DNA of 46,303 nt from a virus (taxonomy: Duplodnaviria > Caudoviricetes): positions 1 through 46,303 of IMG/VR virus record IMGVR_UViG_3300010286_000003, one strand, 5' to 3'. The notes beneath the pieces were generated by a model that saw only the letters and a list, made by a program, of their open reading frames with translations, searched no databases and had not been told where the DNA came from. This document shows, piece after piece, positions 4,441 through 46,303 of the stretch. Numbering within the stretch: position 1 is the stretch's first letter; every line of letters starts with the position of its first letter. The position numbers and the translations under genes are program-made.

Positions 4441-6021
4441 ATGGAAAAATTTAAAACCGCTTTTTATTTACGTATATCACGTGAAGATGGCGATGATAAA
4501 GAATCAAATAGTATCACTAATCAACGTATTTTATTAAAACAATATATAACAACTCATGAAAATGAATTTGAATTTATAAATGAATATGTTGATGAAAATT
4601 ATACTGGACTTAATTTTAATAGACCAGCTTTCCAAAGAATGTTGGAAGATATAAAAAATGGATTAATAAACTGTGTAATATGTAAAGATTTATCCAGATT
4701 TGGACGAGATTATATAGAAGCTGGACACTATCTGGAAAAAGAATTTCCTAAATACAAAATAAGATTTATAGCTATAAATGATAATATTGACAGCTACAAA
4801 CAATCTTATGATTTATTATTGCCTGTAAAAAATATTTTAAATCAACAATATGCAATTGATATAGGTAGCAAAGTGCGTACAGCTATAGAATCTAAGCAAT
4901 CAGAAGGGTTATTTATTGGTGCATTTCCTTCTTATGGTTATTTTAAAGATCCCAAAAATCATAATAAACTTATTATTGATGAATATGCTGCTCAAATAGT
5001 AAGACGAATATTTAAAATGTATTTAGATGGATATGGTAAAATTAAAATAGCAAAAATCTTAAATAAAGAAGGAGTTTTATGCCCAAGTGAATATAAAAAT
5101 CAACTTGGAATGAGATATTATAATGGACAAAAAATTGGTAGTACAACTTATTGGACATATTCAACAGTACATCGGATTCTTACAAATGAAATGTATATTG
5201 GTAATATGGTTCAAGGAAGAACTAAAAGAATAATGAAAAGTAATCCAGAAATACTTCCAAAAGATAAATGGAAAATTGTTGAAAATACTCATCCGCCAAT
5301 AATTGATAGAGAAACATGGAATAAAGTACAAGCCTTATTAAATAAAAGAAGTAGAGAATTAAATGTAGATAATAACGTAAGTATTTTTGCAGGCTTTTTA
5401 AAATGTGGAGATTGTGGTAGATCTTTAGCAAAAAATATAAGAGGAAATGTTATTTATTATGTATGTGGCTCATATAAAAGATATGGTGGAACAATATGTT
5501 CTCCTCACACTATACGACATGATATGTTAGAAAAAAGAGTGTTAAATTTAATTAAAATTGCAGCAATCATTTATGAATCAAAAATGAATGAATACAGAAT
5601 AAAACAAGAACTTATTGACCAACAAACTAATAGTATAAAAAATGAAATAGAAAAAACAAAAGCTGCTTTAAATAAAATTTATAATTTAAAAAAGGGAATA
5701 TATGAAGATTATAAAATGGGAATATTAACAAAAGATGAATATTTTAGTTTTAAACAAGATTACGAAAAAGAAGAGCAATTTTATAACAATAAAATAAAAA
5801 CATTAGAAGAAGCAATGAAAAATAATGAACCTGATAAAGAAGCAAAAAAATATATCAAATACAAAAATATAACTGAATTAACTAGAGAAATAATGGTTGA
5901 TTGCATCGAAAATATACAAGTATTTGAAAACAATGAAACTAAAGAAAAAGAAATAGCTATAACGTTAACTTGTGATAATGAAATAGGAGAATTAATTAAA
6001 AAATATAGTGCCGAAATATAA
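4441..6021 (+). CDS. large serine recombinase (integrase)
   Basis: YLRISRED (catalytic Ser), DLSRFGR, recombinase domain YIGNMVQG, HPPII, Zn ribbon CGDCG..YYVC...C, C-terminal coiled coil. Confidence 0.95.
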   Translation: MEKFKTAFYLRISREDGDDKESNSITNQRILLKQYITTHENEFEFINEYVDENYTGLNFNRPAFQRMLEDIKNGLINCVICKDLSRFGRDYIEAGHYLEKEFPKYKIRFIAINDNIDSYKQSYDLLLPVKNILNQQYAIDIGSKVRTAIESKQSEGLFIGAFPSYGYFKDPKNHNKLIIDEYAAQIVRRIFKMYLDGYGKIKIAKILNKEGVLCPSEYKNQLGMRYYNGQKIGSTTYWTYSTVHRILTNEMYIGNMVQGRTKRIMKSNPEILPKDKWKIVENTHPPIIDRETWNKVQALLNKRSRELNVDNNVSIFAGFLKCGDCGRSLAKNIRGNVIYYVCGSYKRYGGTICSPHTIRHDMLEKRVLNLIKIAAIIYESKMNEYRIKQELIDQQTNSIKNEIEKTKAALNKIYNLKKGIYEDYKMGILTKDEYFSFKQDYEKEEQFYNNKIKTLEEAMKNNEPDKEAKKYIKYKNITELTREIMVDCIENIQVFENNETKEKEIAITLTCDNEIGELIKKYSAEI

Positions 6022-7472: not shown

Positions 7473-7769
7473 TTATAATTCATAATAATCATTTTCTGTT
7501 ATTTGATTTTCATTAACACTCATTTCTTTTTCTTTAAGTTCATTTTTCTTTTCACTGTATGTTTCAAAAAATGCTTTACACATATAACCAAGCATAGTTG
7601 CTATAATGACTGTAGCAACAGTTTCACTTAATGCTTCAGCAATAGAAACTTTATTAAATGTGGCTAATAAATAAGACCATGTAATCCAAATACAGCCAAA
7701 CCACATTAATCTATTCACCCATTTTTTAGTAAACGTTAAAATATTTTTATCATTTTTTTTTAATTTCAT
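7473..7769 (-). CDS. two-TM membrane protein, holin/antiholin-like
   Basis: Two hydrophobic helices, charged tail, inside lysis cassette. Confidence 0.6.
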   Translation of the reverse strand: MKLKKNDKNILTFTKKWVNRLMWFGCIWITWSYLLATFNKVSIAEALSETVATVIIATMLGYMCKAFFETYSEKKNELKEKEMSVNENQITENDYYEL

Positions 7770-25414: not shown

Positions 25415-26437
25415 TTAATTTTCTTTTTTATTACGTAAAGCATTTATTTTATCACGAATTTCAGTTTTACTCATAGGTTTAATATATGCTGACCTAGTAG
25501 TTTCAGTAGATTGGTGATTTGCTAATTCAGCAGCTAAAGTTAAATCACCAGTTTCTTCATAAATATTATTTAAACGACTTTTCCGTATACAATGTGGTCT
25601 AAAATCATCTATACCTACAATTTTTCCAATTTTACGGACTCTATTGTAAATAGTTTCTCTTGACATAGGGCGATATTCGCCCTTATATTTTGTTATAAAT
25701 AATGCATCACATTCTAATTTATCATAACCATCTTTTCGCATTTCTAGCCATTCTGCTATTAATTCTTTAGCACGTTCCTCAAAAACAACTTCAACATATT
25801 GAGCACGTTTTTCTCTTATATCACGAAATACCATTTCATCTAAATCCAAAGATGAAAGTGTTAATCTTTCTAATGCTCCAAGTCTATTTGCAGAATCATA
25901 AGCTACTTCAAATATAATTTGATCTTGTATATCATACTCATCATTAGTAGATAATTCTAATCTAATTTTTTGTACTTGTTCAGGAGTAAGAAAGTAAGAA
26001 TTTATTATATGTTCATCTTGAGCGTTTTTCATTCTATCTAATTTGTTATCAAAAGGATGAGCCTTTATAAATCCACGTTTCATAGACCAGATATAAAACG
26101 AACTAACGGCTGATAATTTAGTATTTATAACTTTTTTATTATTATGTAAAACATCTTGGCAAAATGCTATATAATCTTCCATAATATCAACTGCATTTTC
26201 CATAAATTCATCAGAATATAAATCTATATTATCATATCTTTCAGCAAGAAAAGCTAACCAATGCATAAAAAAGTTTTTATAAGTTTTATATGTAGTATCT
26301 TTAACTTCTCTATTTTTAATTATATTTGATTGAAGATACTTTTCATAATACTTTAAATTTTTAGGAGATATTTTATTTAATTTATCTTTAGTAAAATATC
26401 TCACTTTTACTATTTTGGATTTAGCCATTGTTATCAC
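25415..26437 (-). CDS. tyrosine recombinase
   Basis: Catalytic set present: SANR, REKR, PHCIRKS, LANH, RSAY; N-terminal core-binding region. Confidence 0.9.
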   Translation of the reverse strand: MITMAKSKIVKVRYFTKDKLNKISPKNLKYYEKYLQSNIIKNREVKDTTYKTYKNFFMHWLAFLAERYDNIDLYSDEFMENAVDIMEDYIAFCQDVLHNNKKVINTKLSAVSSFYIWSMKRGFIKAHPFDNKLDRMKNAQDEHIINSYFLTPEQVQKIRLELSTNDEYDIQDQIIFEVAYDSANRLGALERLTLSSLDLDEMVFRDIREKRAQYVEVVFEERAKELIAEWLEMRKDGYDKLECDALFITKYKGEYRPMSRETIYNRVRKIGKIVGIDDFRPHCIRKSRLNNIYEETGDLTLAAELANHQSTETTRSAYIKPMSKTEIRDKINALRNKKEN

Positions 26438-42844: not shown

Positions 42845-44068
42845 TTACATCATGTCAACTAAATTGGCTAGTTTACTTCTCCAGATGTTTTGAAGTTCAA
42901 CATAACCAAAAATATCAGTTCCTTTTAAAACATCAATAGCACGTTTCATGCCATTATTATTTCCTTCAAATAATACATTATCAACTTGTTGTGTATGATC
43001 ACCTTCTATAATAACTTTTGCATTTTCACTAACTCGTGACAAACACAATTTTAATAAATCAATTGTAGTATTTTGTGATTCTGTTATGTATAAAATTTCA
43101 GAATCTTTTACCTCCATACCACGACAATCACACATAGCAACAAGTTTTAATTTATCTTGTTGTATAAATTCATCTACGATATATCTATCGCCGAATTTAG
43201 TGATTAATATATGTCCTATATTAGATTGCATAGCTTTTTCTAATGCATTACCAGAATAATAACCCATTTGTTGTGAACCACGAACAGGAGTAGGATTATG
43301 TAATACAACAAGTCTATTGTAATTACCTTTTTCAATCAAATACATAGCTGTCATTAAAGCAAGATATGTTTTACCACTACCAGCTTTACCTGAAATAGCA
43401 GTAATAGTATTATTTAATATGGAATCTATTACCATTTTTTGATAAATATCTTTTGGTTTTATTTTTTCTTTGAATACTTCAATCGGTTTATTATGTACAG
43501 CTTTATGTTCTTGCCCGTTCCACCTATAACAGTCTATTATCTCATTGTTATTATCTTTTATAACTAAATACTCATTAATTAACAACTTATATATATTCTC
43601 TTTTTTATTTTCATAAAAATAAGCCATCCCATTATCTGATGGCATAATTTCTTTAAAACCTTTATATTCAAATTTTTCTTTTAAATTAATATTACCAACT
43701 TTTAATCCAAATCTATGAATCGCCATTAATTTACATGCTACATCAGCAGTTATGAACTCAATAGGAGAGTGTTTGTTGTATTGATAAGCACAAGCTAAAA
43801 TAATATTATCTGGAGTATACTCTAACTCCATATCTTGTAATAGATCAAATATTTTATTATCAGGTATAACAACTTCATATTTATCAATATTTTTATCTAA
43901 TAATTTTACTAATTGTCTAGCTTTATATTTTATATTTTGATCTTTATTTGCACTGGTTTTTATATTCTCTAATTCTTCAATTGATTTTAAACTACATACA
44001 AAGTTTTCTTTAAAGATAGTATCTTGCAATTCAATAAGTGCATTTGTGTCATAAAACTTTTTAAGCAC
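42845..44068 (-). CDS. phoH: PIN-PhoH fusion (PhoH2-like RNase/ATPase)
   Basis: PIN acidic residues YDTN, EELE, PDN, TAD; PhoH GKAGSGKT, RG, ITESQN, SRV, EGD..QVD, RS. Confidence 0.88.
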   Translation of the reverse strand: MLKKFYDTNALIELQDTIFKENFVCSLKSIEELENIKTSANKDQNIKYKARQLVKLLDKNIDKYEVVIPDNKIFDLLQDMELEYTPDNIILACAYQYNKHSPIEFITADVACKLMAIHRFGLKVGNINLKEKFEYKGFKEIMPSDNGMAYFYENKKENIYKLLINEYLVIKDNNNEIIDCYRWNGQEHKAVHNKPIEVFKEKIKPKDIYQKMVIDSILNNTITAISGKAGSGKTYLALMTAMYLIEKGNYNRLVVLHNPTPVRGSQQMGYYSGNALEKAMQSNIGHILITKFGDRYIVDEFIQQDKLKLVAMCDCRGMEVKDSEILYITESQNTTIDLLKLCLSRVSENAKVIIEGDHTQQVDNVLFEGNNNGMKRAIDVLKGTDIFGYVELQNIWRSKLANLVDMM

Positions 44069-44372: not shown

Positions 44373-44975
44373 AAAAAACCTAATCTCGATCGGAGAACAG
44401 GATGATCCATCTGCCGATGGTAGATATGGTAGATAAGCTAATATCATCAATCGCCTACTTATAATAAACGACTGAAGAAACTGTTTGCACGTTTGTGCAT
44501 CAGCTATCTAGTATTTTTCTTTTCCCGTAATTACGGTAAGTCGGTATGAGGATGCATACTCAACCTCGTGCAGAACCTCCGCAATGCCTTTCCCGACACC
44601 TTCGACAATGCTTCAACGGTCGTTTGTGACCTTATAAACGCCTTTCCTGCTATAAAAAAGCAGGTACATACAAACTTCCAGCCACAGCACAGATAAGCAA
44701 ACGCAGCACTTGCCATACCGTTTTAATGCTTAATTCTGCACCAAGTTTTTCGCCACGACATCAGGTAAGTTAAACATGTAGTCATGGTTCCTAGACGTTA
44801 TACAGTGTTTTTATAGTCGTTCCCTGCACCCGACTTCGCCCACGCAATGTAAGCCACACGCAACTTTAGATCCCGGCTTATATTTAAGCTCTCCGCCGTA
44901 GAGAATTCGAGAGTTGCACCCGAATAATTACTCTGGCATTCGCCTGCCTGTAGGATTATCCACCGGCTTTGAAGC
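44373..44975 (-). ncRNA. large (~600 nt) structured non-coding RNA, ROOL/GOLLD-class or new
   Basis: High GC (34/60 at 44821-44880), no credible ORF, 5'-3' closing helices, several long-range stems including crossing ones, 3' hairpin + U6, begins right after tRNA-Ser. Confidence 0.8.
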
Positions 44976-44978
44976 AAA

Positions 44979-45071
44979 CGGATAATAGAGGATTCGAACC
45001 TCTGCACCTACTTTATTTTCGGTGTACAGATTAGCAATCCGCTGCATTCAACCTGATTCTACCAATTCTCC
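44979..45071 (-). tRNA. tRNA-Ser(GCT)
   Basis: GCGGA-TTGCTAA-TCTGT anticodon arm, long variable arm, GGTTCGAATCC, G73; G4-A69 mismatch; no encoded CCA. Confidence 0.85.
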
Positions 45072-45075
45072 GAAA

Positions 45076-45160
45076 CGCCATGTGTAGGACTCGAACCTAC
45101 AGTGCAGTTACGCATCACTGGTTTTCAAGACCAGCTCCTTACCAATTAGGATAACATGGC
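45076..45160 (-). tRNA. tRNA-Ser(TGA)
   Basis: GCCATGT/ACATGGC acceptor, CTGGT-CTTGAAA-ACCAG, variable arm, GGTTCGAGTCC, G73. Confidence 0.9.
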
Positions 45161-45165
45161 ATTAG

Positions 45166-45249
45166 TGGGAAGTGATGGAGTTGTACCATCCGAGTCTTTC
45201 GACAACAGATTTACAGTCTGCCCCGCTACTATCTACGGATTAACTTCCC
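45166..45249 (-). tRNA. tRNA-Tyr(GTA) with non-canonical D/T loops
   Basis: GGGAAGT/ACTTCCC, GCAGA-CTGTAAA-TCTGT, GTC-GAAA-GAC variable arm, T-loop TACAACT, A73. Confidence 0.8.
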
Positions 45250-45262
45250 TAAAAATAGTGAA

Positions 45263-45323
45263 CTGAGAAAAGAGGACTTGAAACTCTATCGCCAGAGTTT
45301 ACCTACCATTGAACGATTTCCCA
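45263..45323 (-). ncRNA. tRNA-like element lacking an anticodon stem (tRNA-Gln-like remnant or mimic)
   Basis: TGGGAAA/TTTCTCA acceptor + G, D-like GTTCAATGGTAGG, T-loop TTCAAGT; 61 nt. Confidence 0.55.
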
Positions 45324-45375: not shown

Positions 45376-46303
45376 TTAAATTGTTATTGGTTTATATCTG
45401 TCACTATCAAGTATTTGATACATTAACTCTTCTGGAGTTTTATCAATAGCATTAATTACATATTTGAATGTACTAGCTGATTGTCCAGACACAAGTTGAA
45501 CACCCTTTCTATTTTTATCAACATGAAATACATTATGCCTACTATTAACATTCCAAAATACTATATTAGGAATTTGATAACCATTCTCATCATATATTCT
45601 AGCTATATAATCATAGAATTGTTCTTTATGTTTTTGAGATACACAGTAATCAATTTCCATATCTGATATAATTATTAATGATTTTGGAATTTCTTCTTGA
45701 GAACAATTATTTTCTTTAGCAATTTCAAGTATTTTTAACAAAGCAGCTTCTAAATTAGTATTCATTTCCCAATTAGCTTTTGAAATAAAATTTATTTTAT
45801 TAAAAAGAGTGTTTCCTTTAATTTCCACTATCTCGGGTTTACTTGAAAAAGTCATAAATACATTATGATATGCACCTTTATTTCTTTCAGCAAAATATAA
45901 GGCAAGACCAATAGATGTTGCCATAGGTCTACCTTTCATTGATCCAGATACGTCCGCCATAACCAAAACATTACATTCATTATCTATGTAATTGGGAAGA
46001 TTATTCCACTGAGCTTCAAGGACAGTATTATCTTCATGCCCGTATAAAACTTTTTCAACAATGTCATATGGATACAAAGTACCGGTATTTATTTTTTCTT
46101 TGCCAACCGACACATCATTCAAATATTGCGAAAATCTCTCTTCATCGTGTCTCATAAAGGCATTCCGATAATTCATCATAGCCTTTGATGGAACAGAAGA
46201 GTAGTTAATAGTATTCCACTCGTTAGCAGACATACGTCTTTCTACAATGTCAATGTATTTTCTAAGAGATTTCACTAATCTCTTATATACATATACAGAA
46301 AGA
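45376..46303 (-). CDS. DUF2828-family TROVE/Ro60-like protein with C-terminal vWA domain (5' partial)
   Basis: YSSVPSKAM, LYPYDIV, EAQW..L, MIDAS DVSGSM, FMTFS, TNL, ISDME, IVFWN, VSG.S; frame open to the window edge. Confidence 0.85.
   Translation of the reverse strand, partial: LSVYVYKRLVKSLRKYIDIVERRMSANEWNTINYSSVPSKAMMNYRNAFMRHDEERFSQYLNDVSVGKEKINTGTLYPYDIVEKVLYGHEDNTVLEAQWNNLPNYIDNECNVLVMADVSGSMKGRPMATSIGLALYFAERNKGAYHNVFMTFSSKPEIVEIKGNTLFNKINFISKANWEMNTNLEAALLKILEIAKENNCSQEEIPKSLIIISDMEIDYCVSQKHKEQFYDYIARIYDENGYQIPNIVFWNVNSRHNVFHVDKNRKGVQLVSGQSASTFKYVINAIDKTPEELMYQILDSDRYKPITI

Follow-up and report, generated by a model that had tools for sequence, protein, structure and literature searches.

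A GC-rich stretch behind phage tRNAs reads as a chain of small RNA modules, including an orphan drum RNA that may act as an antitoxin decoy

A GC-rich, 603-nt stretch that follows a tRNA cluster in a large phage is very probably a chain of small RNA modules, each folding separately, so that its build is modular. The stretch occupies positions 44373–44975 on the minus strand of the window, by which we mean the whole 46,303-nt piece of DNA that was analyzed (IMG/VR record IMGVR_UViG_3300010286_000003); all coordinates below are window positions unless a locus is named, and all features of the RNA region lie on the minus strand. The preliminary description of this DNA had proposed a single pseudoknotted RNA of ~600 nt, but the first 55 nt (module A), the next 70 nt (module B), and a 116-nt drum RNA are each found in different genomes without the other two. 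Because RNAs of the drum kind precede a predicted RNA-cutting toxin gene in bacteria, it is plausible that the virus carries these RNAs as decoys. Our leading reading, held with a little less than even confidence, is that the stretch is a cassette of orphan RNA antitoxins, transcribed together and serving as decoys against host RNase toxins. An antitoxin role is suggested for the drum RNA by its genomic company in bacteria and is extrapolated from there to modules A, B, and C.

Spanning 46 kb, the window represents ~27% of the genome of a large tailed phage and contains terminase, tape-measure, integrase, and lysis genes. It also carries a tyrosine recombinase within the virion gene block (25415–26437) and a large serine recombinase adjoining the lysis genes (4441–6021). 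The low GC content of the window, together with the relatives of the phage, points to a Firmicute host, and the phage appears to be of a temperate type. On the minus strand, the order begins with a DUF2828/vWA gene (45376–46302, PHROG annotation "RNA-binding protein"), the upstream neighbor of the RNA region, which is truncated by the window end. There follow a degenerate tRNA-like element (45264–45322), which was recognized by eye with approximate ends and is missed by ARAGORN and Rfam; a tRNA-Tyr with a GUA anticodon and an atypical T loop (45166–45249), which scores 38.2 bits with the Rfam tRNA model and is missed by ARAGORN; and two tRNA-Ser genes, with UGA (45075–45161) and GCU (44978–45072) anticodons. 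The 603-nt stretch comes next and is closed by a terminator-like hairpin with U6 (44373–44401), assigned from the sequence. Behind it lie a second hairpin (44365–44344), the only one of the two called by a terminator scan, a 53-aa ORF, and a PIN-PhoH gene (42845–44068) that is common in this phage group.

Several features of the preliminary description held up. The stretch has a GC content of 44.1% as compared to 27.3% for the window, it directly adjoins tRNA-Ser(GCU) at the end of the tRNA cluster, and neither of its two overlapping ORFs (61 and 69 aa) matches a Pfam family, consistent with a non-coding region. The local hairpins named there, along with the 3′ hairpin and its U6 tail (44401–44373), are present in the sequence, and the predicted fold of the stretch beats 20 of 20 shuffles (z −2.27). 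Thus, the assignment of a structured non-coding RNA to the tRNA island of a large, Firmicute-type temperate phage was upheld.

The suggestion that this RNA is ROOL-like was not borne out. At E values up to 10, neither ROOL (RF03087, cut-off 99.1 bits) nor GOLLD (RF02032, a conserved-domain model, cut-off 150 bits) matched the stretch, and in one scan the ROOL control was also without a match in any genome. The Rfam comparison that had been recommended was likewise negative for OLE, RNase P, tmRNA, and introns at E up to 10, and positive for a family that had not been named, drum, at 48 bits. None of the models for known self-cleaving ribozymes or introns matched the stretch convincingly at E up to 10; the single match to a plastid group II fragment (12.7 bits, E 7.6) is far under its cut-off. 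Comparison by eye with consensus sequences also spoke against a group I intron, RNase P, pistol, hammerhead, or HDV-like core, and Rfam agrees. A hairpin at 44503–44467 has flanks that look like a hammerhead core by eye, but the invariant positions of the consensus are missing and Rfam has no match there. BLAST searches with the whole RNA, as well as with its first 116 nt, found nothing real among 50,697 phage and 72,556 plasmid records, and four weak matches in 401 Bacillota genomes were read as chance. The stretch beyond module A, used as a query, gave six weak matches in 30 records, of which the five that were inspected read as chance matches in coding-like sequence. The sole full-length relative that was found, L153, is an identical copy.

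The first module in transcript order, module A (44921–44975), is an unnamed RNA of ~55 nt with no Rfam family. It forms two local hairpins, one pairing 44963–44960 with 44953–44950 within a 3-bp outer stem and the other pairing 44944–44942 with 44937–44935. Module A is present in 15 other contigs, a count that leaves out the identical copy L153 and two weaker matches (L238 and L241). A looser viral scan returned 119 loci, 13 of which scored as real (E < 1e-8). The 13 loci of a metagenome scan included L147 and L151, each truncated within the element, in addition to L153, and L128, a relative found through DUF2828, holds the first 50 nt of module A just before its contig end. The L128, L147, and L151 contigs all end 70–180 nt from the start of module A, possibly through an assembly effect. 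Strings from module A were absent from the six of eight supplementary files of PMC8040213 that were searched. In an alignment of 11 sequences, 95.5% of the cells of the two-hairpin fold are paired and three pairs show changes in both strands, a level that none of 500 shuffles attained. Part of the first hairpin had been built into the search pattern; the second hairpin lies outside it and accounts for two of the three covarying pairs. A loop-to-tail pseudoknot was also considered for module A and rejected, since the mean best helix was 5.6 bp within sequences versus 5.2 bp across them.

What lies behind module A differs in all but one of the 15 contigs; L147 keeps the order A, B, C. In L221 and L234, a tRNA-Val begins ~90 nt after the start of module A, while a tRNA-Ser lies ~330 nt after it in L202 and a tRNA-Gln ~400 nt after it in L212; at the remaining loci, tRNA-like elements were recognized downstream by eye. 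None of the ten module A loci with 327–700 nt of downstream sequence has a drum core. Other elements were observed in these islands. A second shared element of ~35 nt, absent from the window, stands just after module A in L128, L151, L202, L221, L234, L244, L252, L259, and L260. The tRNA-like elements that follow module A in L165, L212, L244, L252, and L259 have, by eye, an acceptor stem and a T arm with long inserts replacing the anticodon arm. Two more conserved, GC-rich non-coding elements of tRNA islands, without an Rfam match, occur at L128:7270–7410 and 7595–7700 and at L151:420–540 and 230–335.

Module B (44859–44926) is an unnamed RNA of ~70 nt with three hairpins and a pseudoknot, and it too has no Rfam family. 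A scan with a 17-letter pattern gave 17 loci, two of which are real (L320 and L325); in both, module B stands alone between a phage gene and a terminator-like hairpin, with neither a tRNA nor module A. The loop that had been described as T-loop-like (44917–44912) pairs with 44865–44860 to form a 6-bp pseudoknot, and this pairing is kept in all four sequences with changes on both sides. The three nested helices are paired in the same four sequences with only one-sided changes. Upstream of module B, L320 (1290–1348) and L325 (1410–1465) share an unnamed conserved element of ~55 nt without an Rfam match, which is adjacent to B in L325 and ~110 nt off in L320. Module C (44796–44860) consists of a hairpin and then an H-type pseudoknot with an A-rich linker, in which 44835–44831 pairs with 44819–44815 and the loop 44828–44824 pairs with 44805–44801. 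Its one relative, L147, preserves both hairpins and the loop pairing although the letters have changed, so that module C is described from a single homologue; a pattern scan for it returned 24 loci, none of them real. Folding alone defines the unassigned segments D–F (44622–44790), with predicted hairpins at 44787–44753, 44741–44687, and 44664–44646, and segment H (44407–44499), with three predicted local hairpins. These segments make up about 40% of the stretch and have no homologue among 347 loci.

The module that links the stretch to a known family is the drum RNA (RF02958) at 44506–44621. Its score of 48 bits exceeds the cut-off of 43 (E 1.2e-7), and the match spans positions 1–112 of the 112-position model. 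Faster scans missed this copy, and the match is therefore regarded as moderate and the counts of drum RNAs elsewhere as lower bounds. The drum kink-turn has been shown (PMC8191799), and the window copy keeps both kink-turn strands together with its own pseudoknot (44597–44593 with 44544–44540), which suggests that it is still under selection. The loop pseudoknot is the best helix in 9 of the 11 other drum RNAs, with letters that differ between genomes. In the window copy it comprises 5 bp in the same register as those nine, and the longest helix computed was a different one of 7 bp. A relaxed sigma-70-like pattern found no promoter of its own for the window drum. There is no terminator directly behind it; the terminator lies ~105 nt further on. 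The window also has no toxin gene directly behind the RNA and terminator, as the next ORF is the 53-aa one, which belongs to no family, and PBECR4, PemK, and DUF3800 were found in none of the 44 window ORFs scanned.

In bacteria, drum RNAs have a different setting. Weinberg et al. describe drum as associated with nearby proteins and occasionally linked to DUF3800 (Weinberg et al. 2017, PMC5737381). We scanned 151 Bacillota genomes and found one drum RNA; 151 genomes from the class of that match gave nine drum RNAs in seven genomes, and two small classes gave none in 22 and 40 genomes, respectively. A pattern scan returned 119 loci that are mostly chance, with two sequence groups of true drum RNAs. 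At the nine chromosomal loci, the gene directly after the drum RNA encodes PBECR4 in six cases and a PemK/MazF-like protein in one, while the remaining two run into a gap and a contig end. PBECR domains are predicted RNases (PMC5512222); PBECR4 has no PADLOC model and no solved relative. With the relaxed pattern, a sigma-70-like promoter lies 28–37 nt upstream of all nine chromosomal drum RNAs, and a terminator-like hairpin was seen by eye between the drum RNA and the gene at most of these loci. In the reverse direction, a drum RNA is directly upstream at four of six PBECR4 loci found by protein (three above the cut-off), where the four matches came from drum-linked protein queries and 3 of 16 plasmid hits were examined. 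An unbiased Pfam search placed a drum RNA at one of three PBECR4 loci.

The arrangement of promoter, drum RNA, terminator-like hairpin, and PBECR4 gene was observed at loci L330, L332, L333, L334, L337, L338, and L345–L348, with a PemK-like gene instead at L336. The same layout is described for AbiF (10.1101/2025.04.15.648962) and TenpIN (PMC12283969) type III toxin–antitoxin loci. We infer that drum and PBECR4 form a type III-like pair, the RNA binding to the predicted RNase and thereby blocking it, and from their sequences these loci are a candidate for a type III family that is so far undescribed. The drum motif itself is already known. Our partial coverage of the literature returned no account of a drum–PBECR4 pair or of mixed decoy cassettes, and the supplement to Weinberg et al. 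2017 may already describe the protein. At a further locus (L342:1200–1460), a PBECR4 gene stands behind a promoter and an element other than drum, ~200 nt long, which contains an internal repeat, is not matched by Rfam, and may be another class of RNA antitoxin.

There is precedent for an RNA antitoxin that works away from its toxin gene. The pseudo-ToxI of phage TE is a toxin-less copy of an antitoxin RNA for which suppression of abortive infection has been proposed (Blower et al. 2012, PMC3475682). For AbiF, the RNA antitoxin is reported to be active in trans (10.1101/2025.04.15.648962). In the mechanism we propose, modules A, B, and C, the drum RNA, and the further hairpins would be transcribed together with the three phage tRNAs, each folding independently. 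Infection or prophage induction would cut host transcription, and a PBECR4-type toxin would be freed. The phage drum RNA, produced from the tRNA transcript, would then bind the host PBECR4-type RNase and keep the toxin blocked, such that the infection is not aborted. By extrapolation, modules A, B, and C would do the same job against other RNase toxin families. Orphan drum RNAs in other phages are compatible with this proposal: a search for PBECR4 alone in five further phage records with a drum RNA, of which two are complete, found none. In the 149-kb phage G001, a drum RNA is directly followed by skipping-rope, another protein-associated motif, within a tRNA cluster.

Other observations count against the decoy reading, namely the moderate match of the window drum, the kept order of A, B, and C in L147, and the ~40% of the stretch that falls to the unassigned segments D–F and H. 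Modules A and B have not been met in a toxin locus: a model of module A, which has low sensitivity, found none in 151 genomes, the module B pattern gave matches in 3 of 401 genomes with none scored real, module A is absent from 15 drum or PBECR4 loci, and no toxin gene was found beside either module. Since the window covers ~27% of the phage, a cognate toxin could also lie elsewhere in the genome. A broader proposal is more tentative still, namely that the tRNA islands of Firmicute phages are places where RNA antitoxin decoys are combined into varying cassettes, that drum–PBECR4 is an undescribed type III family, and that A, B, and C are antitoxins of further RNase defenses.

The strongest rival accepts the chain of independent small RNAs and gives its members other or mixed jobs, such as processing signals of the tRNA transcript, self-cleaving ribozymes, regulators, or tRNA-like decoys, with the drum RNA a passenger from a host locus. 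All occurrences of modules A and B were in non-coding islands of phages, none of them next to a toxin gene; degenerate tRNA-like elements are numerous in these islands, and module A of the window starts 3 nt after a tRNA. However, in other phages module A is at least 100 nt from the preceding tRNA, no ribozyme family matches at E up to 10, and a mere passenger sits poorly with the kink-turn strands and pseudoknot that the drum RNA retains. We consider this explanation rather unlikely.

A second rival makes the RNAs partners of a neighboring phage protein, either as the antitoxin leader of the PIN-PhoH nuclease-ATPase or as Y-RNA-like ligands of the DUF2828/vWA protein, and we regard it as improbable. 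The order of RNA, terminator, and nuclease gene does resemble a type III layout, but the 53-aa ORF and ~300 nt separate the terminator from PIN-PhoH, and PIN-PhoH relatives occur without these RNAs; in the five of eight relative loci that were scanned, drum at its gathering cut-off was absent. (In the related phage L124, a skipping-rope RNA at 7514–7594 lies ~300 nt downstream of the PIN-PhoH gene.) DUF2828 carries an RNA-binding annotation and is present in two other module A records (2 of 13), but it is missing from all five near-complete module A phages and has no solved relative by sequence. The DUF2828 gene is thus not an obligate partner of the RNA stretch.

The single-RNA model rested on five long-range stems, namely 44964–44956 with 44436–44428, 44954–44950 with 44458–44454, 44821–44815 with 44473–44467, 44741–44732 with 44577–44568, and 44836–44830 with 44544–44538. 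All five lie where they had been placed and are fully pairable, but long-range stems are not above chance in the stretch. When helices whose strands are separated by 100 nt or more were counted in four length classes, the stretch had 8, 2, 3, and 2 as compared to shuffle means of 5.5, 1.3, 2.0, and 1.8, and 20–54% of 100 dinucleotide shuffles reach the observed counts. Ensemble pair probabilities of the five stems, in the order given, are 0.16, 0.00, 0.00, 0.69, and 0.10, where the calculation cannot model pseudoknots and several local alternatives score low too. Four of the five use strands that are paired locally in homologues. The two-hairpin fold of module A occupies the strands of the two closing stems, and the arms 44836–44830 and 44821–44815 can pair mutually inside module C. 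The proposed crossing pseudoknot lacks support: its two 5′ arms can pair together (44835–44831 with 44819–44815), and one of its 3′ arms is the strand (44544–44540) that partners the drum loop. The remaining stem, that with probability 0.69, overlaps the drum closing stem by 4 nt; its other 6 bp could coexist with the drum fold, so 44741–44736 may pair with 44573–44568 in place of the predicted local hairpin. The search found no diverged full-length homologue in which the covariation of 5′–3′ stems could be read. We regard as improbable a single ~600-nt RNA closed by such stems, which would be a large class not described before, with drum and other domains taken up into it, and which might assemble itself as ROOL and GOLLD do. 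It could draw on three nested complementarities that link the 5′ third to the 3′ end, on the one stem with high ensemble probability, on one terminator without an internal promoter, and on the A, B, C order in L147, but it has against it shuffle-level helix counts, stems that clash with local folds, parts that occur apart, and no ROOL or GOLLD match.

Should the decoy reading be correct, phage tRNA islands could be read as a catalog of the RNA-controlled defenses of their hosts. The type III layout with PBECR4 gives a testable lead to what drum and related orphan motifs do, a question posed since 2017. If a phage copy rescues in trans, decoys against toxin–antitoxin defense would be an arsenal stocked beside the tRNAs, and pseudo-ToxI would be no single case. 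Under either reading of the chain, modules A and B are two unnamed, covarying small RNA motifs. The stretch also illustrates that GC-rich sequence behind phage tRNAs can mimic one ROOL-sized RNA without being one.

Compared with known systems, the stretch resembles ROOL and GOLLD (features as given in PMC5737381 and PMC12286853) in being ~600 nt long, GC-rich, and directly behind tRNAs in a Firmicute-type phage; it differs in that neither model matches it, its long-range stems lack support, and several of its parts are found on their own. Its drum RNA resembles the family in its whole-model match above the cut-off, its loop pseudoknot, and its kink-turn strands, whereas it lacks its own promoter, an adjacent terminator, and an RNase gene and is embedded among other modules behind tRNAs. 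The chromosomal drum loci share with the type III systems ToxIN, CptIN, TenpIN, and AbiF a promoter, a structured RNA, a terminator-like hairpin, and an RNase gene. They differ in a mostly PBECR4 toxin of the BECR fold and in one RNA unit of ~115 nt in place of repeats, and they are known from sequence alone; the window has the RNA half only. A parallel in proposed function is the pseudo-ToxI of phage TE, as reported in PMC3475682, which is likewise phage-borne, toxin-less, and pseudoknotted and is a proposed suppressor of abortive infection. Pseudo-ToxI is a tandem repeat of one unit, with its action against ToxN shown experimentally, whereas the units in the window differ from one another, sit in a tRNA transcript, and have a putative role.
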